Positions 3,150 through 23,488 are shown, numbered from the stretch's first letter. The stretch is DNA of 64,000 nt from Nitrosopumilus sp. (GCA_965223425.1 OZ245003.1:2432001-2496000), one strand, 5' to 3'. Notes: generated by a model not told the origin, from the sequence alone. A program made the numbers and translations.

Positions 3150-3343
3150 AAAAGGATCACGTGGAAATTCCAAAACCATCAAGCGAATTTCAAAAAGTTA
3201 ACTGCAATGAATGTGGCGAGCTTCAAGTGGTTTATTCTCATGCAACAACATCGGTTGCATGCAACTCCTGTGGCAACGCCATTACAAAAGCGACAGGCTC
3301 AAAAGCCGAAATAAATGGCAAAGTCTTAAGTAGTGCCGAGTAA
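3146..3343 (+). CDS. rps27e: 30S ribosomal protein S27e
   Basis: PSSEFQKVNCNECG...VYSHA...CNSCG; follows rpl44e. Confidence 0.95.
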   Translation: MKKDHVEIPKPSSEFQKVNCNECGELQVVYSHATTSVACNSCGNAITKATGSKAEINGKVLSSAE

Positions 3344-3913
3344 ATCATAATCCTGCTTTGTGTTTAGATTAAGCGCAATTCTTTTGTCATCAATTACAAT
3401 ATAACTCTCATCTAAATTTTCAAGAGAAGAGATGCTTTTAGAATTTACCAGAGATATTCCGGTATAATGACACTCTTGATTTTCAAAATCAACGGAATAG
3501 TCTGATTTAATTCCAAGCGAAGTTAAAAACTTGTTTGTAACGACGACGCTAGTCCAGATGTTTTGAGGGTTGTATCGGGTGACAATTTTTTGTATGATTT
3601 GTTCATCCAGCAACGGCAGATCACCAGAAGTTACAAAAACATCATCATCATCAATAGTTTGAAGCACTGAACTTAGATCCTCAACATAGCCCATTCCAGA
3701 AGTATCAAAAGTTGCAACATTGTTTTCTTCTAGCAGTTTTTTTGTTTTGGGCGAGCCAGGACTAGTCACTGCTAAAATTTTTGCAAAGCGGTTTGAGCTT
3801 TTCAACGAGTCAATAACATGTAGGATTACTGGTTTTTTGTATTTGAGCAACAGTTTCTCATCATCCAAATTCATGCGAGTGCCTTTGCCGCCTGCCATCA
3901 CAATCCCAATCAT
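3326..3913 (-). CDS. cobY: Adenosylcobinamide-phosphate guanylyltransferase (CobY-like NTP transferase)
   Basis: MAGGKGTRM...EK motif, GDLPL, NLNT; adjacent to cobS. Confidence 0.85.
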   Translation of the reverse strand: MIGIVMAGGKGTRMNLDDEKLLLKYKKPVILHVIDSLKSSNRFAKILAVTSPGSPKTKKLLEENNVATFDTSGMGYVEDLSSVLQTIDDDDVFVTSGDLPLLDEQIIQKIVTRYNPQNIWTSVVVTNKFLTSLGIKSDYSVDFENQECHYTGISLVNSKSISSLENLDESYIVIDDKRIALNLNTKQDYDLLGTT

Positions 3914-4635
3914 ATTGAGACAAACACCATCAAAGAGGCCAATCTTGTAAGTTCGTTGGTTGCGCCAAGGACATCGCCTGTGATTCCGCCAAAACTACGA
4001 GTCGAAATGGCCAATACAAAAATTGTCAGGGTGACAGTAACGCCTAGCATTACAAGTCCGGCAGTCCCGCCAATAACAGCAACGGGAACAAGCATGATGA
4101 CAAAAGCTGCTGCAAGTTTCCTCTTGTCTTTCATAATTGAGACAAAAGGAGTGTTTGAGCCTAGTGAGGCAGAGTTTCCCAAACTAGCCATCAGCACCAT
4201 TGAGAATTTAGCCAAAATTTCACTAATCAAAACTGCCTTGAACAGATCAAACCCGCTTGTAAGGGAGATGGTGATTACCAGACCCATAAGATACAAAACA
4301 ATTCCAACTATTCCAGCAGAGCCGGCAGAAAGGTCTTTCATTACTTTTAGCTTTCTGTCTTTGCTACCCTTGGCCATAAGGCCATCTGCAAAATCAGCTA
4401 ATCCGTCTGCATGGTGAATTCCTGTCACAATTGCAAGGGAAGCCACTACCAACAGACTAACTAGCAAGGGATCCAAAAAGAAGGACAGCCCAAAACCGAA
4501 CGAACCGACTAAAAGTCCGATTGCAATTCCCACAATTGGAAAAACGTACATGTATTTTGCAATGTTTTCTAACGTTGCATTTGATGATGGAAAGATGGTC
4601 AGAAAGGAAAAGACAGAACCGATTTCTTTAAGCAT
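3910..4635 (-). CDS. cobS: Adenosylcobinamide-GDP ribazoletransferase (cobalamin synthase)
   Basis: FLTIFP, TGIHHADGLADFADG, FGGITGDVLGA; multi-pass membrane protein. Confidence 0.95.
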   Translation of the reverse strand: MLKEIGSVFSFLTIFPSSNATLENIAKYMYVFPIVGIAIGLLVGSFGFGLSFFLDPLLVSLLVVASLAIVTGIHHADGLADFADGLMAKGSKDRKLKVMKDLSAGSAGIVGIVLYLMGLVITISLTSGFDLFKAVLISEILAKFSMVLMASLGNSASLGSNTPFVSIMKDKRKLAAAFVIMLVPVAVIGGTAGLVMLGVTVTLTIFVLAISTRSFGGITGDVLGATNELTRLASLMVFVSI

Positions 4636-10144: not shown

Positions 10145-10348
10145 AATACTGCCATTCTCATCGAGGCTGTTAATCTCTTTAGTAATTTTAGAATGCTTTT
10201 CGACTAGGGTCTCAAGTGCATTTTGTAACTCTGTAGAATTCCATTTGGAATTGATCATAGAAGATAATTTTGAAACAATGCTCCACTGAAGGTTGTTCTG
10301 CTCATCAACCAATTCTAAGAAGCGCTTACCTTTTTCACCGTCATTCAT
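10139..10348 (-). CDS. Small hypothetical protein
   Basis: 69-aa helical ORF with host-like codon usage, convergent with ctaB. Confidence 0.6.
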   Translation of the reverse strand: MNDGEKGKRFLELVDEQNNLQWSIVSKLSSMINSKWNSTELQNALETLVEKHSKITKEINSLDENGSIL

Positions 10349-10672
10349 GATTTTTCGACATGACGCGATGATAAAAAAGTTAGCAGAGGGTAATAATATA
10401 ATTTCAAAGCATTATTAGGAAATACGGAATATCAGATGTGTTGAAATGCAGTATATCAGAGTGTAGGTTAAAAGCGGCAGAAACCGTGAAAATCAGTTTT
10501 AAAGAAACCAGAAACCTATGTGAAAACCATTACAAACTGTTCAAAAATAAGGAGAAAAAATATCTTGCAAATTTTACCAAAGCATCAAAATTTGAGTTAT
10601 GATCCTTTAAAAAAAAATTTCAAACTTCAAAATTATTGAAAGATTTAACACTTACTATTTTTAAACAAAAGT

Positions 10673-11164
10673 ATGGCCGCCAAGAAAAAGACTGTTGAGA
10701 AGAAAAAGAAGGCTGTTAAGAAAAAGTCAACCAAAAAGAAGGCCGTTAAACCAAAAAAACAAGCAAAGTCTTCAACAAAAAGACCTGAATTTGAGAAAGC
10801 ATGGGCAGAATACAATTCGGCACTAAATGGTTGGAAAGAATCTCTTGCGCAATGGCAAAAGGCTACAAATGAAACTCTGATGACATATCATGATGCGTGT
10901 CAAAAAGCATTAGAGTCAGACTCGGAATTATTGAAGAAAGTAAGTTCAAGTTGGGAAAGCACGTGGGAAGAAATTGGCCCCGAATACATTAAACAGCAAA
11001 CCAAGATGATTGAAAACATTTTCAAAGAAACCAATATTGGATCAATAAAAAAATTCAATGAACAGTGGGAAAAGTTTCTTAAAACATCAGGAGGTGATTC
11101 AATAAAGGCATATCAAGAAGCCATTAAAAGATTTAATCAAACGTGGCAATCCGAAAAGATGTAA
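10673..11164 (+). CDS. Hypothetical protein: Lys-rich N-terminus plus Trp/Gln-rich amphipathic helices
   Basis: 163-aa ORF, AAKKKTVEKKKKAVKKK followed by repeated W-containing helices. Confidence 0.75.
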   Translation: MAAKKKTVEKKKKAVKKKSTKKKAVKPKKQAKSSTKRPEFEKAWAEYNSALNGWKESLAQWQKATNETLMTYHDACQKALESDSELLKKVSSSWESTWEEIGPEYIKQQTKMIENIFKETNIGSIKKFNEQWEKFLKTSGGDSIKAYQEAIKRFNQTWQSEKM

Positions 11165-11183
11165 TTCTGCAAATTAAAATTTA

Positions 11184-12014
11184 TTATTTTTTTAATTTTA
11201 CAACTCGGAAAACTTTACAGTCACAAACAGAACAGGTTCCCCTAACCGCAGGTCTGCCGTTTTTCAGTGGTTTCTTCTGGATTTTTAATTTTTCTTTTGG
11301 TTTTACATTTGGCACAGTAAGCTTGTGGGGAATCTGATCCTGAAGTGCCTTTAGCGGTTGTCGAGCGAGTAAGTTTTTTCTCAGCATTATCAAGTTTATC
11401 AGTTTGTTTTTCTAATGTTTGGATAATTTCATGTTCAATATCAATATCCTCGAGTTTTCCAATTTCTTTTTCGAATTTCTCATCCTTTGATAATTGTTCG
11501 GTTGATTCATCTGATGACGGATTTGATTGAGCAGACAACACATCTTCTAATTCATCAATTTCTTTCTGTAAATCATCAAACTGTGCTACTTTTCAGTAGT
11601 AGCTTCTTCTAATTCTGGTGTCGGTTCAAAGCCTTTTGGCAGAGTACCTTGTGTAGTCGAAGAATCTGGTTTTGATTCAAATGTTAATTCCTTAACTGGT
11701 TCAGGTGGCGGTACTGACGTTTCAGGCAAGTCACCAAGATAATCCAGTTTGACTTTGTTTCCATCAATTCGTAGATAGGGATTACCTGCAATTGAAAAAG
11801 TTCGAATTTTGTGCCCCTTTTTCCAAGAATCTTGCCCACTGTAAATTGTAATGTAGCTCAGTCCATTTTGTATATCAGAGCATATAGTCAAGCGATCTAC
11901 CAACTCTCCTTCAGTAATTCCTTGATCAGTATCTTGATGACGTATGACAGCATAGATTAAATGATCAAAATCAAAACTTGCCTCCGAAATTAAATAATCG
12001 GCCCAGTGACTCAT
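11184..12014 (-). pseudogene. DUF3892-like N-terminus / coiled coil / C-terminal Zn-ribbon (DUF5679-like) protein with two frameshifts
   Basis: Three overlapping minus-strand ORFs join into one protein across shifts at about 11590 (GAAAAGTAGCA) and about 11270 (AYCAKCK...|KNGRPAVRGTCSVC). Confidence 0.7.
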
Positions 12015-12452
12015 TATAAAAAATAAGAATTGTTTTCTAGTAAATAAGCAAGATCAATAAAATACACTGGAAGGTTCGCGGATGTTTTCAACAAATTATG
12101 AGTTTTCGAAGAAGTGTAAAGATAGGCGGGTTTTTGGAAAGAACCAAACATAATAGGGAATTCTGATAGATAGAAATTAGACCCCGCACTGTATGTGTGG
12201 ACATTGCCTTGAAAAGTCTCGAGAGCTTAAGTGTAGCGGCTCTCTAACGTAACACTATAACCCTCTAATGTAACGCCATCTCAAAATCGGTGAAAACCCT
12301 CGAAGATGTACCAGTATAGTCTCTAGGACTGCTAAATTTGAATCAATAAAATATTGATGATTGTTTGATCGGGTAAAAATTAACAAACAAAAAATAATAA
12401 CATTATACACCATCTTGATGTAATTATGCAACCAACCCTGAAAAATCACTCC

Positions 12453-12974
12453 ATGAAGACTTTGCCAGATCTTGTAGAACCAAACATGAGCGTGATATTT
12501 GTTGGAACAAATCCAGGAGAAAAATCCGCAAGAATTGGCCATTATTTTGCAGGAGCAAGCAACATGTTTTGGAAGTTATTACATGAATCAAATTTAACAG
12601 GTGAAAGACTGACTACCGAATTAGATAGAAAAATGGTACAGTATGGTTATGGGCTAACAGATGTTGTTAAACGACCTACACGTTCTACTACAGAACTCCG
12701 AAGAAATGATGGAAATGGAGCTAAGAACCGATTATATTGCATTATAGAAAAAAATGAACCTGATGTGGTTGCTTTTGTTGGAAAAACTGGCTATAGGTAT
12801 TATCTAGATGAAAATAATAAAAAGGTAAAATATGGTTCTCAAAAATTTAAAATTGGAAAATCATCTGTGTATCTTCTCCCTTCTACCAGCGGCCAAAGTT
12901 TTGCAGATACAAGCTACAAGGAGAAATTATACTGGTATAAGAGGCTAAGAACATATGTTCATGCATATTCATAA
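12453..12974 (+). CDS. mug: Mismatch-specific uracil-DNA glycosylase (UDG family 2, MUG/TDG)
   Basis: LPDLVEP..VIFVGTNPG..S...GHYFA...NMFWKLL, GLTDVVKRPT, LPSTSG. Confidence 0.92.
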   Translation: MKTLPDLVEPNMSVIFVGTNPGEKSARIGHYFAGASNMFWKLLHESNLTGERLTTELDRKMVQYGYGLTDVVKRPTRSTTELRRNDGNGAKNRLYCIIEKNEPDVVAFVGKTGYRYYLDENNKKVKYGSQKFKIGKSSVYLLPSTSGQSFADTSYKEKLYWYKRLRTYVHAYS

Positions 12975-13071
12975 TTATAAACATTCAGAAAATATCGATC
13001 ATTATTTTTTGAATTGTGATCACAATTCTGTAATAGGCTTTTTATAGGTCATTTTTGTAAAAACGTCCAAG

Positions 13072-13548
13072 TTGACGGCTTCATCTCTTGCAGGTTTTTT
13101 CAACGGAATCAATAAAACTCTTTCAATGGATCAATTTGATGATAAACTAAAAGTTCAAAAAATAACTTACCTTGCCCAAGAATCTGGGATTGATCTAGGG
13201 TATGAATTTGAGTGGTATATACGAGGTCCCTATTGCAAACAAGTTTCTGAAGATGCACATACAGCTATAGATGAAAACTTAACTGAACACCCAGATGATG
13301 TTGGTTTAAATCAAGAACAAGTTAGAGAGTTTGGAGAAATGTTAAGACCTCATCTTAACAAGACAGATTGGTTAGAAATTGCAGCATCAATATTATATCT
13401 AAAAAATGAAAATTATGCAAATGAAGAGTTAGACAATATTATTGGTTACCTATTAGAAGATCTTACTTATGGTTACAAAAATTTTGAAGAAACTTTAATT
13501 CGTAGGGTTTTAGCAGATATGCTAAGATTGAACATACTAACAGCATAA
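13072..13548 (+). CDS. YwgA/Panacea(DUF4065)-like winged-helix protein
   Basis: KLKVQKITYLAQ..GIDLGYEFEWYIRGPYC..V and WLEIAASILYL resemble the QK..Y...Y.F.....GPY and LE..AT pattern of these families. Confidence 0.6.
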   Translation: MTASSLAGFFNGINKTLSMDQFDDKLKVQKITYLAQESGIDLGYEFEWYIRGPYCKQVSEDAHTAIDENLTEHPDDVGLNQEQVREFGEMLRPHLNKTDWLEIAASILYLKNENYANEELDNIIGYLLEDLTYGYKNFEETLIRRVLADMLRLNILTA

Positions 13549-13592
13549 CATAATAGTTAAAACCGTATTCTCGATCATGAGATTGTCTTAAT

Positions 13593-14597
13593 TTGTTTGA
13601 TCAAAAATGGAAAGAAATTCTTCAAGATGTAAAAGATAATGGCATTACCGTTGAGCGAGGTGAAAAAAGAGCATTCCGAGAGAAAATTTCATATCAGTTT
13701 CAAATAGATGACCCAAGAGATAGAATAATTTTTAACAAAAGTTTTGGTTTGAACATATTCCAATGTATAGGACAATTTTTGTGGATTACTCAAGGTAGTT
13801 TCAATGCTGAAACAATCAAATATTATGCCCCATTTTCTTCAAAGTTTTCTTCTGATGGATTCAAGATGATTGGTGCTTACGGACCCAGATTATTTGGAAT
13901 CCATCATTTAGAACAAATCAAACATGTTATCAATGTATTAGATGGAGACCCATCCAGAAGAAGGGCTGTTGCATCAATTTATCTTCCCCAGTTTGATCAG
14001 CACAAAACAGCTGATGAGGTACCTTGTACATTAAATTTACAGTATTTAATACGAGAGCAAAAAGTTCAATCAGTTACATATATGAGAAGTCAAAATGCCT
14101 TTAGACTTCTACCTTATGATGTATTTTTGTTTACAATGGTTCAAGAGTATGTCAATGCAGTTTTGACTACTGCTCATAATACAGAATTAGGAACATACAA
14201 TCATTATAGCGGTAGTTTTCATATTTATATGGACGAGTTAGAATTAATTGAAAATGTCTTAGAGGATGATACCAATGAAACTTTTCAAATGAAATCTATG
14301 CCATCAAAGAATGTTATTCTCAGATTACAAAAATTAAATAGATTTGAATCAATAGTTCGAACTATCATCTCTTCACATGAAAAAAGAAGTAATCCTATTG
14401 ATTTTGATTTTCTATTTGAACTATGTAAAGAATGGTTTGATGATTCTTATTGGAAGCAATTTGCTTTATTATTGATTTGTTATGGTGCAATAATAATGAA
14501 AAATAATGAAAATAAAGATTATGCAATATCATTATTAGATCCAATTTACAAGCATATGGTACAAATGTATATTAACAAACAAGCAAATTCAAGTTAA
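13593..14597 (+). CDS. Thymidylate-synthase superfamily protein, (d)CMP hydroxymethylase/MilA-like
   Basis: GAYGPRL, DPSRRRAVASI, DEVPCT (catalytic Cys), MRSQNAF, LPYDVF (Asp in place of the dUMP-selecting Asn), YNHYSGSFHIY, plus a helical C-terminal extension. Confidence 0.82.
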   Translation: MFDQKWKEILQDVKDNGITVERGEKRAFREKISYQFQIDDPRDRIIFNKSFGLNIFQCIGQFLWITQGSFNAETIKYYAPFSSKFSSDGFKMIGAYGPRLFGIHHLEQIKHVINVLDGDPSRRRAVASIYLPQFDQHKTADEVPCTLNLQYLIREQKVQSVTYMRSQNAFRLLPYDVFLFTMVQEYVNAVLTTAHNTELGTYNHYSGSFHIYMDELELIENVLEDDTNETFQMKSMPSKNVILRLQKLNRFESIVRTIISSHEKRSNPIDFDFLFELCKEWFDDSYWKQFALLLICYGAIIMKNNENKDYAISLLDPIYKHMVQMYINKQANSS

Positions 14598-14599
14598 AA

Positions 14600-15130
14600 T
14601 TAAATTGAATTAGAATATTTACGAAGTGAACGATACCAATCTAATTTTTCATAGTACTTTGTATCTGCATAACTTTGTCCACTTGTTGAAGGTATAAGAT
14701 AAATTCGTATGTCACCGTACTTGTATTGAAATCCATATTCTAAATTAGAATATTGATTTTGTGAATATATTCTAAAACCCATTTTCCCAACAAATGCCAC
14801 TATTTTAGGCTTGAACAAATCCAAGGTTCGATTAAGCCTTCTAGTGCTTTTAATCGTATATTGCTGTTTTATGTCCGAAACGGTTCTAGTAGGTATTTTA
14901 ACAATATCCGTTAAACCATAACCATACTTCAACATTTTTCTGTCATCTTCAGTTTTTAACAACACGTTAGTTAGGTTTGATTCATACATTAGTTTCCAAA
15001 ACACATTAGAATGTCCTGCAAAATAATGGCCAATTTGTGAGGAACGTACACCTGGGCTAGTACCTACAAAAAGAATTTTCAATTTTTTTTTAAGTATGTC
15101 TGGTAATGGCTTTAGTTTTTCACTCAACAA
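14600..15130 (-). CDS. Second MUG/TDG-family glycosylase with variant motif GTSPG
   Basis: LPDIL..ILFVGTSPG..S...GHYFAG..NVFWKL, GLTDIVKIPT, IPSTSGQSYADT; clear paralog of 12453-12974. Confidence 0.88.
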   Translation of the reverse strand: MLSEKLKPLPDILKKKLKILFVGTSPGVRSSQIGHYFAGHSNVFWKLMYESNLTNVLLKTEDDRKMLKYGYGLTDIVKIPTRTVSDIKQQYTIKSTRRLNRTLDLFKPKIVAFVGKMGFRIYSQNQYSNLEYGFQYKYGDIRIYLIPSTSGQSYADTKYYEKLDWYRSLRKYSNSI

Positions 15131-15179
15131 CTATCTGCAAAAGTACTCATAAAAAAAAGATATCATAAAGGTACAGATT

Positions 15180-15401
15180 TTAGAGATCTTCTGCTTTGAA
15201 AGGATCTGTTAATTCCATGTTTGGAAATTCAATCCACCGCATTTTCCATTGACTTTCATCTCTCAAAATGTTGAGTGTTGCATCACATTTCTTACATTTG
15301 TAGATCAGATTACTTCTTCTAGTGAAATTGATCAATTTCTTGATTACATATCTCTGAGGTTTGTTCTTGAATCCACAATCTCCACAGGTAATTGTAATCA
15401 T
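15180..15401 (-). CDS. Small Zn-ribbon hypothetical protein
   Basis: CGDC...CKKC in a 73-aa ORF. Confidence 0.55.
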   Translation of the reverse strand: MITITCGDCGFKNKPQRYVIKKLINFTRRSNLIYKCKKCDATLNILRDESQWKMRWIEFPNMELTDPFKAEDL

Positions 15402-15500
15402 AGGTTATTGTATTATCTTTCTGATCTATAACTTGTATTGATCAACTCTGTTGACCAAAAATCAATTTTTTCATAGTGGTCTTAAAAAATTAGGATCAAT

Positions 15501-16088
15501 TTGTGGGATATGAAAAGTAGTTCATCCCAGTCCTCGCTGTACAGTGCCAGGAGCACCTGTGGGTGCTACAAGCATACAAGATGCAGTCAGGGATCAGACC
15601 GGAATAAATATCCCCACAACACCATTCACAGGATATTGAGGGACGAAGATCTGGCATCAGAAGAGTCAAGGAAGGGCAAAAAGCGAAGATGGATCCGCTA
15701 CGAGCGCACGTATTCAAACTCCCTGTGGCATACTGACTACAAGCTGCTTGATGACGGCAGGTGGTTCCTGTGCTACGAGGATGACGCCTCCAGGTTCGTG
15801 ACAGGGTATGGCATGTTTGATAATGCCACTACAGAAAACGCACTCAGGGTGCTAGATCAGGCCATAAGGAACCATGGCAAGCCTGCGGCAGTCATGATGG
15901 ATCACGGCTCGCAGTTTTATGCAGACGAAAAGGAATCTCAAAAAAAGGATGCAAGCAAGTTTGAAAAAAGGCTAGTCGAGCTTGGAATAAAACAAATTCT
16001 TGCAGTAGGACGCCAACAAACCAATGGAAAGCTGAAGCGCCTGCACGGCGAAATACAGCGCAAGCTTCCGGAGTTGTGGCAATCATGA
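15501..16088 (+). pseudogene. IS481-like (rve integrase core) transposase remnant
   Basis: RYERTYSNSLWHTDYK, DDASRFV, DHGSQF, QTNGKLKR (expected catalytic E reads K); truncated at both ends. Confidence 0.8.
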
Positions 16089-16277
16089 GTATGAAACCAA
16101 GTAGTAGGGGGCGCCTATCTTTACAATTTCTCAAAATCATGAAAATTAATCAAAACATCCTATAACTTTCCAGTGTAAAAATTTTCATTCAAGCCCCCAT
16201 TAACTTCAGAACCCAATAAAATAATCAATTAGGCTCAAAAAATAAGGTTATAATTGGTTTAACAGTGTGATGAACAG

Positions 16278-16658
16278 ATGGAAATCTCGATAGAACCATG
16301 GAAAAAATTGGTTATTCACGAAGTAATTGAATACAAATTTGATGACTGGGTAAAACAAATAGCATTTAGTACAAGAACGTCAGGGGGAGCAATACCCACA
16401 ATGCAGTGGACAAACGGAATTGTTTTTTCACCAGCAAATTTTCCAACAACGAATTCCACTGTCGAAGAGCAACTAAAAGGAACTTTGCATTGGTCATCAG
16501 TATCTTTTGCAATTAAAGAAAAATTTGAAAAACAAATAGTAAAAGAAAACGCAACTATCAATCTAGTTGATGTTAGTGTAAATGAGATTTTTAAAGAATT
16601 GGCAACAAATTTGAAAGCACAGTCAAAATATGCTGCTTTAGAATCCGACAAAGACTAA
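16278..16658 (+). CDS. Conserved-looking hypothetical protein
   Basis: 126-aa ORF with host-like composition, coupled to the next ORF. Confidence 0.75.
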   Translation: MEISIEPWKKLVIHEVIEYKFDDWVKQIAFSTRTSGGAIPTMQWTNGIVFSPANFPTTNSTVEEQLKGTLHWSSVSFAIKEKFEKQIVKENATINLVDVSVNEIFKELATNLKAQSKYAALESDKD

Positions 16659-17341
16659 TGAATATCGAAGAAACGATCAAAAATTGTGAGATGTATCTAA
16701 AACAGATCAGACAGTATGATCCTGATCCTTACTATGTAAATTATTTTTTTAACAAATACATAGATTCGGTAAATGACACAATTAATGGAATTTTTGAAGA
16801 AGGGGACAGGGATTTTGGGTTGTTTATTTCAGAGAAGGCCGTGCAGGAAAAATTTGAAGAAAAAGCAAGAAAGAAAAACGATCAAAACGCCATAAAATTT
16901 TCAAAATGGTATTCAGCACAATATAATCAGGAACATCAGAACCCATATCCAAATTTTATAAAAAAAATCTGCCAATTCAAAAATAAGTTTGAAAAACTGC
17001 CTGAGATCAAAGTTATGATCAGGGCATCAGAACGATACAAAAATGATATTTATCAGCATATTAAAATTAATTCAAGTCAGGGCAAATTACGTTCAAAAGA
17101 AGAGTTAGAAATTGAAATAAAAAGACAGTTGCCAATATTTTTACAAGTAATCAATCATAAAAGAAATGAGAATGACGAGCCCAAAGTAGGCAAAAACCAG
17201 GTAACTGCATCTGCATTTTTAGATATTGAGGAGCATAAAGATGTGGAAATTGTTTATGCAGCAGAAATTTACATTCAAGTTATGAAACGACTAGTTGAAG
17301 AGTCAAGAAGGAAGATAAAAGAATTGACTACACGGAGATAA
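16658..17341 (+). CDS. Hypothetical protein
   Basis: 227-aa ORF with overlapping stop/start (TAATG). Confidence 0.75.
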   Translation: MNIEETIKNCEMYLKQIRQYDPDPYYVNYFFNKYIDSVNDTINGIFEEGDRDFGLFISEKAVQEKFEEKARKKNDQNAIKFSKWYSAQYNQEHQNPYPNFIKKICQFKNKFEKLPEIKVMIRASERYKNDIYQHIKINSSQGKLRSKEELEIEIKRQLPIFLQVINHKRNENDEPKVGKNQVTASAFLDIEEHKDVEIVYAAEIYIQVMKRLVEESRRKIKELTTRR

Positions 17342-17476
17342 TTTTGAAGTTGAATCCAAATAACATGTTTAACTCATGGGCAGATGTTTCATTGATCTAA
17401 CGCAGTAAATGCAATTCCCAGCACCAATAGAAATAACAGATACAGAGGCTGGTTTGTGGTTTCATTTCCATTTGGA

Positions 17477-17893
17477 TTATTGGCTTTTTGGCCACATTGT
17501 AGTCCAAGTTTCGGCAAACTTTTTCATCATTTCACCGTAGGCTTGCATTTGTTCTAATCCAGACGAGCCCAAAGTCTTTTGCCAATTTTCAGCAAATTGC
17601 GTGAAAACAGAGGCGTTAGAATCACTGAGAGCTTTTTGCCAATTTTCACTAAACTCTTTGAGGGATTGAATTCCTGCTTCGTTCATTGCCTTTTGCCAAT
17701 TTTCGCCAAATAATTTCATGGTCTCTGCACTTGATTCGGCAGTAGCCTTGTCCCAGACTTGATTGAATTTGGTTTGCATTTCATTACTTGCATTTTGGAT
17801 TTGTTCAAAAAGGGATTTCCAGTTTTCAAGAGATCTTGCATATTCTTGCCACAAGGAGTCCCATTCGTTTGTTTTTTCTTGTTCAGACATCAA
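17477..17893 (-). CDS. Hypothetical Trp/Gln-rich helical repeat protein
   Basis: Repeats of F.ENWQK; similar in style to 10673-11164. Confidence 0.75.
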   Translation of the reverse strand: MMSEQEKTNEWDSLWQEYARSLENWKSLFEQIQNASNEMQTKFNQVWDKATAESSAETMKLFGENWQKAMNEAGIQSLKEFSENWQKALSDSNASVFTQFAENWQKTLGSSGLEQMQAYGEMMKKFAETWTTMWPKSQ

Positions 17894-17942
17894 TGAAAGA
17901 TAGTCGTCATTATTCTTAAATGGATCTGTGAAAATCGGTTAG

Positions 17943-22441: not shown

Positions 22442-23488
22442 GTGGAAGAAACAGGTGAAACAAGAAAAATCCAATTTACAGGAAAATCATCATACATAAT
22501 TTCATTGCCAAAACAATGGATAACAGAATTGGGTCTAAAACAAGGAGACCAAATTAGAATGGTCAGAAAAGGATCATCGACATTAGAGCTTTATCCACCA
22601 AAATTTGAATCTCGTACACAAAAGAAAGAGGATGCAGTAATAGAGATTGAGATTGAAGAGGAAGCATCTTCAATTGTTAGAAAATTAATTTCTCTGTATT
22701 TTTTGGGATTCAAAACCATTTACGTTAAACCAAAAAATGGCAGACTAAGTCCAAGTCAAAGAAACACTGTGAAGGGTGCCGTTAAACGAATGCTGATGGG
22801 TTCTGAAATTATTTCTGACTCGAGTGGAGGAATCACAGTACAGGTTCTTGTCAATTTGCTAGAACTGTCAGTTGACGGGGCATTCAAAAGAATGATTCAC
22901 CTGGCAAAATCAATGTCCAGTGATGCAATTTTATCAGTAAAAGAAAATAACCTAGATCTAGCTCAAGAGGTAATCAACACTGATGATGAAGTAGATAGAT
23001 TTGGATTTTATATTATTCGTCAACTGAAAATAGCCATACAAAATGAGCACATGCTAAAAGAAATGGGTTTTAGAAACGCTAGGAACTGTTTAGGATACAG
23101 ATTGGTTGTAAAAAATATAGAAAGAGCAGGAGATCATGCAGCGTTTATTGCAAAGGATCTTCTCGAGTTCAAAAAATCAGTCAAAAAAGAGATTTTAGAA
23201 AAATTGCAAGATATGAATGAATTTTGTTTGTCAGTGCTAGATGAATCATGTTTGGCATTATTCAAAGAAGACTATGCACAGGCAGAAAAGACCATTAAAA
23301 AGACAAGTGAGATTTCCAAATATGAGAAGAAAGTCAGAGACGCCTCAAAATCACTAAAAGATGATGAGGAGATTTGGAGGGTCAGAAGAATGACTGAGAA
23401 TATTCGAAGGGTGTCTGAATATGCCAGCGACATTGCAGAAATTGTCTTGAATATGAATATAGAAAAAGCACTAAAAAAATCAGGATAA
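22442..23488 (+). CDS. phoU: AbrB-PhoU phosphate uptake regulator
   Basis: RKIQFTGKSSYIISLPKQW, DDEVDR, IERAGDHA. Confidence 0.92.
   Translation: MEETGETRKIQFTGKSSYIISLPKQWITELGLKQGDQIRMVRKGSSTLELYPPKFESRTQKKEDAVIEIEIEEEASSIVRKLISLYFLGFKTIYVKPKNGRLSPSQRNTVKGAVKRMLMGSEIISDSSGGITVQVLVNLLELSVDGAFKRMIHLAKSMSSDAILSVKENNLDLAQEVINTDDEVDRFGFYIIRQLKIAIQNEHMLKEMGFRNARNCLGYRLVVKNIERAGDHAAFIAKDLLEFKKSVKKEILEKLQDMNEFCLSVLDESCLALFKEDYAQAEKTIKKTSEISKYEKKVRDASKSLKDDEEIWRVRRMTENIRRVSEYASDIAEIVLNMNIEKALKKSG

Follow-up and report, generated by a model that had tools for sequence, protein, structure and literature searches.

A mobile gene cassette of Nitrosopumilus that looks like a toxin-antitoxin or defence system writing and erasing a DNA modification

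We analysed a stretch of 64,000 nucleotides from Nitrosopumilus sp. (GCA_965223425.1 OZ245003.1:2432001-2496000; hereafter the window, with positions counted from its first letter) and describe in it a compact cassette that looks like an undescribed toxin-antitoxin or defence system that writes and erases a DNA modification. An earlier note on this DNA had proposed a four-gene module at 12453-15130, and the listing of open reading frames (ORFs) bears this out with four intact ORFs: MUG1 (12426-12974, forward strand, 182 aa), an accessory member encoding a MUG/TDG-like DNA glycosylase with a GTNPG motif; gene 2 (ORF2; 13072-13548, forward strand, 158 aa), encoding a standalone acidic protein that resembles the C-terminal domain of DarG, a putative antitoxin or regulator, and heading an operon with the next gene; the gene of a thymidylate synthase (TS)-like enzyme (13593-14597, forward strand, 334 aa), which has a MilA-type TS fold and the Asn169/Leu173 chemotype and is a predicted 5-hydroxy-dCMP synthase; and MUG2 (14600-15130, reverse strand, 176 aa), a core member encoding a second MUG/TDG-like protein, with a GTSPG motif, and converging on the TS-like gene (their stop codons are 2 nt apart). 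MUG1 probably starts at an internal Met at 12453, where most of its orthologs begin, rather than at 12426. The gap from gene 2 to the TS-like gene is 44 nt (13548 to 13593), and the two genes overlap in another locus, L017. A perfect 18-bp palindrome (9+9; GAATTGTGATCACAATTC, 13011-13028) precedes gene 2. The whole cassette sits between UbiA and UbiD, in a variable interval (10145-17942) that also contains small ORFs of no known family and an rve-type transposase fragment; in five genomes of the same genus this interval measures 3.4-8.0 kb and the cassette is absent from it. GC content across 12400-15199 is 0.25-0.365, against ∼0.33-0.48 nearby, with a minimum of 0.25 at 14200-14799, so the AT-rich island previously claimed is there, but as a modest dip.

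The cassette is a conserved, mobile unit. Homologs of the TS-like enzyme occur in five of 300 other genomes of the family (52-61% identity); beside the TS-like gene, MUG1 and gene 2 are present in all five and MUG2 in four, and across the six genomes (the window's and these five) the cassette genes are common and no flanking ORF is shared. Family-alignment scans yielded 80 metagenome and 25 genome loci, some of which repeat genomes of the 300-genome survey; the named records among them are Nitrosopumilus, Nitrosarchaeum, and Nitrosopumilaceae metagenome-assembled genomes (MAGs). In the close clade (22 loci), 19 of the 20 loci that could be assessed have a convergent MUG next to the TS-like gene, the remaining one being rearranged, and all 18 that could be assessed for gene 2 have it immediately upstream of the TS-like gene; among the 83 more distant TS-like loci, gene 2 was found in none and a MUG in one (L036). 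The reverse search of 301 genomes found a cassette-type MUG (at least 170 bits) only in the six genomes with a TS-like gene and in G080; twelve other genomes, four of them flagged as unpublished and used for no other result, gave only weak matches, to a different UDG gene. Co-occurrence, on which the earlier note had staked its proposal, holds in both directions, from the TS-like gene to its partners and from the MUG to the TS-like gene. Genome G080 has a frameshifted MUG1 and an intact gene 2, and no TS-like gene; a swap of partners there was considered and rejected (gene 2 is followed by an ORF without a Pfam family and then by housekeeping genes), and we read the locus as a decayed remnant.

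In the closest relative, 90% DNA identity extends over 2,221 bp that comprise exactly the upstream intergenic region, gene 2, the TS-like gene and MUG2, and MUG1 is variable; hence the invariant core is gene 2, the TS-like gene and the convergent MUG2, with MUG1 as an accessory. The orientation of MUG1 differs between loci, and, as far as upstream sequence is available, the gene is lacking in L102, L103, and L025. The proposed unit therefore recurs as a set with unrelated flanks, but it has a core of three genes rather than four, and elsewhere an optional fifth gene (see below). A viral origin was considered and rejected: a single-protein scan of IMG/VR returned nothing, and an alignment scan returned 209 relatives, all with at most 37% identity. 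A MUG, gene 2 or a gene of the nucleoside 2-deoxyribosyltransferase (NDT) family was found in none of the 80 IMG/VR TS-like loci kept from these 209, and an alignment scan of IMG/VR with the MUG found no relative.

The TS-like enzyme matches the Pfam family PF00303 (54 bits) and, over residues 4-321, the phage TS-like family phrog_5131 of PHROGs (143 bits). By sequence, its closest solved protein is MilA, a CMP 5-hydroxymethylase (106.6 bits; true TS reach at most 41 bits). Its AF2 model (pLDDT 89.6) matches the MilA entries 5b6e, 5jp9, and 5jnh in Foldseek with a TM score of 0.82-0.87 over 331 columns (E ∼3e-23), against 0.58-0.60 for the best ThyA, and the match to MilA spans the full length, including the C-terminal helical extension. 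All ThyA equivalog cut-offs were missed (68.2 bits vs. 174.55 for TIGR03283, and at most 47 vs. 108-405 for the others). For residue counts, we aligned 94 family rows (a few of which duplicate genomic loci) with E. coli ThyA, T4 gp42, and RB69 gp48, and we use E. coli ThyA numbering. The window enzyme has Tyr94, Arg126/127, Glu143, Cys146, Arg166, Ser167, Asn169, Asp177, His207, and Tyr209. Cys146, Thr147, Asp177, His207, and Tyr209 are invariant in all 94 rows; Ser167 is found in 93, Arg126 in 91 and Glu143 in 88. Position 58 is Gln in 55 rows (including the window), His in 25, Glu in 6 and Thr in 1, with 7 gaps, and position 80, a Trp in ThyA, is Ala in 40 rows and Ser in 34. Because the invariant Asp177 occupies the position at which Asn selects uracil in ThyA, the earlier label of a cytosine-type TS homolog, consistent also with the PF00303 match, is right.

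Going by the Pfam names, one could take these for housekeeping genes, that is, a TS that makes dTMP and glycosylases for mismatch or uracil repair. This we find hardly credible: Asp occupies position 177 in every one of the 94 rows, no ThyA or Mug equivalog cut-off was reached (those of Mug are given below), the TS-like gene is present in only five of the 300 relatives, and ThyX and another UDG are encoded elsewhere in the host genome (2.64 Mb). Use of ThyX for dTMP had been expected for this host, and ThyX is present; the TS-like gene is an accessory gene, confined within the host, like both MUG genes, to this island. The host ThyX itself appears to comprise two Thy1 domains in one 545-aa frame, a tandem fusion (G000:C1:1538141-1539484; L002/L003).

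The substrate can be judged from rules worked out for MilA, in which Cys155 is the nucleophile, Asp186 selects cytosine and Glu68 is catalytically important, and in which Ser and Arg in place of Ala176 and Lys133 lead to a preference for deoxyribose (PMC5175136). The cassette enzyme lacks the two ribose (CMP) determinants and has Ser and Arg at the aligned positions; with this cytosine- and deoxyribose-specific pocket, it should act on dCMP. Judged by its residues, the active site is not of the methylase type and departs from those of canonical folate enzymes.

The likely product is suggested by position 169. RB69 gp48 and DLP3 gp80 have been described as flavin-associated 5-hydroxy-dCMP synthases (Lee et al. 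2026, PMC13326640); in the same source D169N is diagnostic (nine further D169N homologs all made 5-hydroxycytosine, 5hoC), the 12 residues within 6 Å of C5 include 169 and 173, and the synthases alone give trace 5-hydroxydeoxycytidine (5hodC) in E. coli DNA. The window enzyme has the motif RSQN, identical to that of RB69 gp48, and Asp177, Glu143, and Asn169 are all present (N177D, L143E, and D169N). Of the 94 rows, 71 have Asp at position 169, 21 have Asn and two have Ser. In a quick tree, the window falls within a supported clade of 17 rows characterised by Asn169 (16 with Asn and one reversal); outside it, Asn169 is seen in P0094 and, on long branches, in P0139 and P0140. The Asn clade is told apart from the Asp clades by only five columns. 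In every independent switcher, residue 173 changes along with 169, Leu going with Asn and Val with Asp. All 22 loci co-switch (Leu173 in 8 of 8 with Asn169, Val or Ile173 in 14 of 14 with Asp169), and distant relatives have Asp169/Gly173 (77 of 80 viral and 69 of 82 bacterial ones). This co-switching suggests two functional chemotypes. For the Asn169/Leu173 enzyme of the window the predicted product is 5-hydroxy-dCMP, and for the commoner Asp169/Val173 chemotype it is probably 5-hydroxymethyl-dCMP. Since the enzyme is MilA-like by descent, with only 33.8 bits to the RB69-type entry 9iqu (near-identical to RB69 gp48) against 106.6 to MilA, the prediction relies on a signature that is convergent. 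According to the title of PDB entry 1bjg, the D221(169)N mutant of TS 'does not promote opening of the cofactor imidazolidine ring', and a loss of folate chemistry through Asn169 would fit that title. The earlier note had foreseen a writer of a modified pyrimidine, with 5-methylcytosine (5mC), 5-hydroxymethylcytosine (5hmC), and 5-hydroxymethyluracil (5hmU) as candidates; a modified cytosine is indeed predicted, but from D169N the base made in the window would be 5-hydroxycytosine, not 5mC or 5hmC. One Nitrosopumilus MAG carries two cassettes, L102 (Asn169, without MUG1 and without the fifth gene, a hydrolase) and L106 (Asp169, with MUG1, the hydrolase, and a MUG2 that has Arg at the catalytic position).

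Both MUG proteins match PF03167 (UDG) well above the cut-off of 24.3 bits (MUG1 1.1e-17, 64.9 bits; MUG2 6.6e-16, 59.1 bits), their best curated matches are Mug and TDG, and they share 49% identity, so genes 1 and 4 are paralogous MUG/TDG-type glycosylases, as had been proposed. Both miss the Mug equivalog NF007570 (106 and 87 bits vs. a cut-off of 144) and therefore represent a distinct subfamily; TIGR00584 is also missed by both (98 and 97 bits vs. 402.6). Both are strongly basic (pI 9.7 for MUG1 and 9.9 for MUG2). MUG1 scores 78 bits against E. coli Mug and 72 bits against human TDG, with its GTNPG aligned to the catalytic GINPG; the catalytic Asn is kept in every upstream MUG1 inspected, and GTNPG is found in all six orthologs of one alignment. 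In MUG2 of the window, Ser replaces this Asn (GTSPG), and among 21 loci the downstream MUG has Ser at the position in 18, Arg in one (L106) and Asn only in L025 and L036, two loci in which there is no upstream MUG1 in the available sequence. MUG2 is well conserved, with 45 invariant columns in 17 sequences, among them the motifs GLTD and PS.SGQSY. By their catalytic residues, then, MUG1 and MUG2 are not equivalent, and of the earlier picture of two glycosylases enclosing the module, the two intact genes stand, but one has lost the catalytic Asn and the other is an accessory. Co-variation of MUG2 with the chemotype of the TS-like enzyme was considered and rejected, with no discriminating column among the 17 sequences. 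TDG is reported to excise 5-hydroxycytosine, and Mug to do so weakly (PMC3553953). The distant locus L036 (3474-4709, 4684-5400, and 5676-6569) has a TS-like enzyme of 35% identity with Asp169 and His58, and a convergent MUG only, in which the Asn is kept (GVNPG).

Gene 2 had been called YwgA/Panacea-like. The window protein has no Pfam match, and neither it, nor five orthologs (at E up to 10), nor any of 51 distant relatives matched Panacea/DUF4065 (PF13274), although a relationship too remote for HMMER would escape such a search; the Panacea assignment finds no support in Pfam, and the predicted fold is instead that of the DarG C-terminal domain. The AF2 model (pLDDT 95.5, pTM 0.91) matches 7yk3_D, the DarG C-terminal domain in the M. 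tuberculosis DarTG complex, with Z 10.4 and rmsd 3.5 over 136 residues in VIA-align, the next match having Z 5.2; Foldseek gave E 0.039 and probability 1.0 for 7yk3_B. There are also weak sequence signals, to DarG in PADLOC (1.1e-5) and NCBIfam (8.5e-5), and to 7yk3_B in a profile comparison (E 0.0086). On its modelled structure, gene 2 encodes a standalone DarG-C-terminal-like protein: this domain fills the 158 aa, leaving no counterpart of the DarG N-terminal macrodomain, and no Pfam domain was found in it. The protein is acidic (pI 4.5, net charge −14). None of its 62 close homologs has a Pfam domain, and the two that have source names are Nitrosopumilus/Thaumarchaeota.

The superfamily of gene 2 is large. 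An exhaustive profile search found 2,153 representative clusters, mostly of ∼160 aa; none of the 51 distant relatives contains a recurring Pfam family, and 43 match the C-terminal part of NF048014 (NCBIfam DarG). The gene 2 family was found in 66 of 301 genomes of the archaeal class, with up to 12 copies each (the host has five matches). The paralogs typically come first in tight operons: for example, an operon of 161-, 114-, and 110-aa genes, present in seven loci including the host, ends with a ParE toxin (3.4e-11), and another has a PIN partner. The host copy of the ParE-ending operon is L127 (G000:C1:656353-659811), and six other genomes have the same operon. Gene 2 and the TS-like gene likewise form a small antitoxin-first operon with a short gap, the layout of type II toxin-antitoxin systems.

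We predicted a three-chain complex that includes gene 2. Its score was 0.34, and no control, the one with a substitute for the TS-like chain included, rose above 0.00; at least 58% of contacts are shared between the runs, and the partner has a pLDDT of 83 or more. The mark used here is reached by 58 of 80 solved complexes and by 2 of 110 mismatched pairs, and at scores of at most 0.60 by 7 of the 80 and both mismatches, but these benchmark counts hold only roughly because ours was a three-chain job with its own alignments. Another candidate role, that of a DNA mimic inhibiting MUG2, was prompted by the charges (pI 4.5 vs. 9.9) and by the title of a 2023 paper by Deep et al., and was set aside. 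With MUG2 retained and another chain in place of the TS-like one, the control scored 0.00, which gives the idea no support and is not evidence against binding. The palindrome lies 44 bp upstream of gene 2 and has a single perfect match in the window, where 0.14 matches would be expected by chance at up to three mismatches. It recurs with one mismatch in the closest, near-identical relative L102 and was not found in six other, more distant loci; we therefore rejected a conserved operator, and we regard 13011-13028 as a candidate, a putative operator of the operon of gene 2 and the TS-like gene.

Some cassettes have a fifth gene. L026, L028, and L106 carry it as a short gene co-directional with gene 2, in the space between that gene and MUG1, and it matches PF05014, the NDT family (up to 7e-13; 39.7-49.2 bits vs. 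a cut-off of 28.8). A profile built from these three found seven distinct loci (L026:4013-4411, L028:4010-4468, L106:5023-5370, L014:2572-2979, L024:2871-3329, L035:1275-1730, and L032:2-217) and a 52-aa remnant in L018 (7853-8008). With E up to 1e-3 it found nothing in the window, and the gene is absent from most loci with enough upstream sequence. Among 13 PDB matches of the hydrolase, 12 are DNPH1/Rcl, the 2′-deoxynucleoside 5′-phosphate N-hydrolase (alias '5-hydroxymethyl-dUMP N-hydrolase'), and its catalytic-Glu motif, PSIGVGMEI, aligns with PSLGVGYEL of DNPH1. In L024, an extra 366-aa ORF without a Pfam family (3319-4419) lies between the hydrolase gene and gene 2.

This gene bears on two other explanations. 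Nucleotide-pool depletion is a known defence strategy, and the TS-like enzyme, with the hydrolase where there is one, might divert or destroy dCMP, for example from host DNA degraded by a virus, and so starve the virus, while the MUGs shield the host chromosome. The dCMP-specific active site, the DNPH1-like dNMP hydrolase directly upstream of gene 2 in seven loci, and the defence-gene neighbours of cassettes elsewhere (see below) all speak for such a sabotage of salvage. We nevertheless consider it unlikely, as neither the window nor most assessable loci have the hydrolase, whereas MUG2 belongs to the core, and dCMP is off the main route to dCTP. Alternatively, the TS-like enzyme and the N-glycosidase might release a free modified pyrimidine in a small-molecule pathway like those of MilA/MilB or BcmA/BcmB, with the MUGs providing self-resistance. 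Over the full length, no solved relative is closer than MilA, and MilB belongs to the same NDT family (PMC4081090) as the N-glycosidase adjacent in seven loci. However, the Ser/Arg pocket indicates dCMP rather than CMP, the N-glycosidase is nearer to DNPH1 (2e-6) than to the CMP N-glycosidase entry (0.042) and is optional, no tailoring or export genes travel along (the flanks are unrelated), and the neighbours are defence genes, so that biosynthesis appears very improbable.

In other loci, the neighbours of the cassette include HsdM (233 bits), Mrr_N (98), HEPN_Swt1 (40; 23, below the cut-off, in L102), a ResIII helicase and a DDE transposase, and in L036 AbiJ_NTD4 and Abi_C with a weak integrase match. 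The distribution of the cassette is patchy. PADLOC returned no system for it, as the earlier note had foreseen, and gave only sub-threshold single-protein matches. The toxin-antitoxin or antiviral reading of that note gains from the fold of gene 2, its toxin-antitoxin-type paralogs and these defence neighbours elsewhere, but it finds nothing to lean on next to the window's own copy, whose neighbours are ORFs without a known family and the transposase fragment (Pfam, PADLOC, and PHROGs). The same evidence could describe a selfish addiction module, with the TS-like enzyme as toxin and gene 2 and the erasers as antidotes, maintained by post-segregational killing with no antiviral role. The antitoxin-first layout with its 44-nt gap, the membership of gene 2 in a superfamily associated with toxin-antitoxin systems, and the mobility and patchy distribution would all suit such a module. 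On the other side, the cassettes decay frequently, which strong addiction should prevent, and their repeated siting beside restriction and Abi genes suggests defence islands; we give pure addiction little credence, and in all its molecular steps it overlaps with the defence reading that we favour.

Several other features of the window lie around the cassette. The transposase fragment (15501-16088, 195 aa, rve integrase core 1.8e-11 in Pfam) has a GC content of 0.44-0.48, clearly above its surroundings. Just upstream of MUG2, on the same strand, is a 73-aa ORF with two CxxC pairs (15180-15401, reverse strand), zinc-ribbon-like, which has no counterpart in five compared loci. A 142-aa ORF (11586-12014, reverse strand) matches the viral family phrog_32719 (2.7e-13), and a 227-aa ORF (16658-17341, forward strand) without a Pfam domain has a weak PADLOC match to Drt1b (4.9e-4). 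Farther away, at 22442-23488 (forward strand), a 348-aa protein combines a MazE/AbrB-type domain with PhoU domains.

A full-text literature search combining the components, with supplements outside its reach, found no obvious description of this cassette. The Panacea paper cites DarG as an example of a dual antitoxin (PMC8832971), and a preprint on haloarchaeal viruses lists TS, NDT and glycosylase genes separately. A parallel in logic is DarTG, which has a DNA-modifying writer toxin, an enzymatic eraser, and a DarG-C-type domain restraining the writer, the fold that gene 2 also has. The putative writer of the cassette differs in having a TS fold and would act on a nucleotide rather than on single-stranded DNA, the putative erasers are separate glycosylase and hydrolase genes, and gene 2 is standalone; no DarT was found among the eight ORFs around the cassette (PADLOC), and no macrodomain among the ORFs scanned (Pfam and PADLOC). 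Another parallel is the mammalian DNPH1-SMUG1 axis, in which a modified dNMP (5-hydroxymethyl-dUMP), an NDT-family sanitising hydrolase and excision by a UDG-superfamily enzyme that harms DNA come together. The three-part logic is the same; there the modified nucleotide arises from accidental damage or salvage, whereas the cassette encodes its putative maker.

With MilA/MilB (mildiomycin) and BcmA/BcmB (bacimethrin), the cassette shares MilA as the closest solved relative and, in some copies, an NDT-family N-glycosidase like MilB; it differs in the deoxy-type Ser/Arg pocket in place of Ala176/Lys133, in the replacement of MilA Glu68 by Gln, and in an N-glycosidase that is DNPH1-like and optional, and instead of an antibiotic gene cluster it carries DNA glycosylases and an antitoxin-like gene. 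With the dCMP hydroxymethylase T4 gp42 and with RB69 gp48/DLP3 gp80, it shares N177D and L143E, and the window also D169N within the RSQN of RB69 gp48. Unlike these phage enzymes, it is cellular, not viral, it lacks a dNMP kinase, a dCTPase and glycosyltransferases, it scores only 34 bits against the RB69-type enzyme, and it has Leu or Val/Ile at position 173, at which Gly is found in distant relatives. A TS domain also occurs in an experimentally validated bacterial defence system from DefensePredictor (PMC13092281); its depiction includes a dNMP kinase, a 5-hmdU DNA kinase and NMAD domains, and the parts of the paper available to us mention no MUG or DarG-like gene.

Brig1 is a UDG-superfamily antiviral effector that acts on modified cytosine (glucosyl-hmC) and occurs beside defence genes (PMC11078745). 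It works alone, on a base made by the phage, and is described as closest to family-4 UDGs, whereas the cassette glycosylases are MUG/TDG-like and come with their own putative writer. By analogy, the MUGs and the DNPH1-like hydrolase might erase a modified cytosine made by viruses, with the TS-like enzyme as a sensor or trap rather than a writer. The replacement of Glu58 by Gln or His in 80 of 94 rows points this way, as does the 1bjg title quoted above for the D169N mutant. Yet there is strict conservation of the nucleophile Cys, of Tyr94, His207, and Tyr209, and of both Arg pairs, which is easier to reconcile with catalysis than with mere binding; D169N homologs are reported as active hydroxylases (PMC13326640); no thaumarchaeal virus with modified cytosine came up, though no search was aimed at one; and the relatives in IMG/VR are distant, at no more than 37% identity. 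We regard a defence of this kind as quite improbable.

The reading that we favour, with about even confidence, is that the cassette is a self-contained, mobile, DarTG-like writer/eraser conflict module, similar to toxin-antitoxin systems and probably antiviral, that works through the nucleotide pool. What the data show directly is which genes are present, their active-site residues and conservation, and the co-occurrence, mobility and surroundings of the cassette; its biochemical steps, its toxicity and the neutralisation of that toxicity, and its antiviral role we infer as follows. The TS-like enzyme would convert dCMP to a C5-modified dCMP (5-hydroxy- or 5-hydroxymethyl-, depending on the chemotype), which host kinases and DNA polymerase would then insert into replicating DNA, where the MUG/TDG-like proteins would recognise and excise the modified base. 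In heavily substituted, fast-replicating viral DNA this could produce lethal abasic sites, while rare incorporation into host DNA would be repaired. In uninfected cells, gene 2 may restrain the TS-like enzyme by direct binding, and perhaps also repress the operon at the upstream palindrome; in some cassettes the DNPH1-like hydrolase might destroy the modified dNMP as a further safeguard. A more specific form of this proposal, which we put forward tentatively and hold to be rather doubtful, is that the cassette constitutes an archaeal immune or abortive-infection mechanism of a new kind: 5-hydroxy- or 5-hydroxymethyl-dCTP, made by the cell itself once triggered and according to which of two interchangeable chemotypes residues 169 and 173 specify, would mark the fastest-replicating DNA, the MUG-derived proteins would shred the marked DNA, and gene 2 would silence the writer in healthy cells.

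A number of observations weigh against the writer/eraser module. Ordinary folate-dependent turnover by the TS-like enzyme is doubtful, because 80 of the 94 rows have Gln or His in place of the catalytically important Glu (ThyA E58, MilA E68), and from its sequence the enzyme could be slow or act as a binder. The D169N rule is here applied outside the clade in which it was established, and 71 of 94 rows keep Asp169. No dNMP kinase, dCTPase or other gene for raising modified dCMP to the triphosphate level belongs to the cassette. Not every cassette can be counted on to have an active eraser, since MUG2 is without the catalytic Asn and L102 and L103 are without MUG1 in the available sequence; in addition, no column of MUG2 tracks the TS chemotype (6 vs. 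11 sequences, 17 in total). The complex prediction lends only weak support to gene 2 contacting the other chains. No recognised defence gene was found among the window's own neighbours (Pfam and PADLOC), and the other sampled flanks consist of housekeeping genes, transposases or genes of no known family. Finally, copies are often broken: the TS-like gene is split in G287 and MUG2 in G219, the cassette is rearranged with an IS66 insertion in G259, and G080 keeps a remnant.

If the writer/eraser reading is correct, this would be the first cellular system to couple a TS-fold writer of modified cytosine firmly to erasers of its own and to an antitoxin-like restraint, with the logic of DarTG executed through the nucleotide pool. 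Enzymes of phage DNA modification and antibiotic synthesis would thereby extend to the defence side of the arms race, and to archaea. The superfamily of standalone DarG-C-terminal-like proteins, with its 2,153 representative clusters, would gain a general role as neutralisers, and the two chemotypes would offer a natural experiment on how a folate-type TS active site might switch its chemistry. The MUG proteins, including MUG2 without its catalytic Asn, would be candidate readers or excisers of 5-hydroxy- or 5-hydroxymethyl-cytosine.

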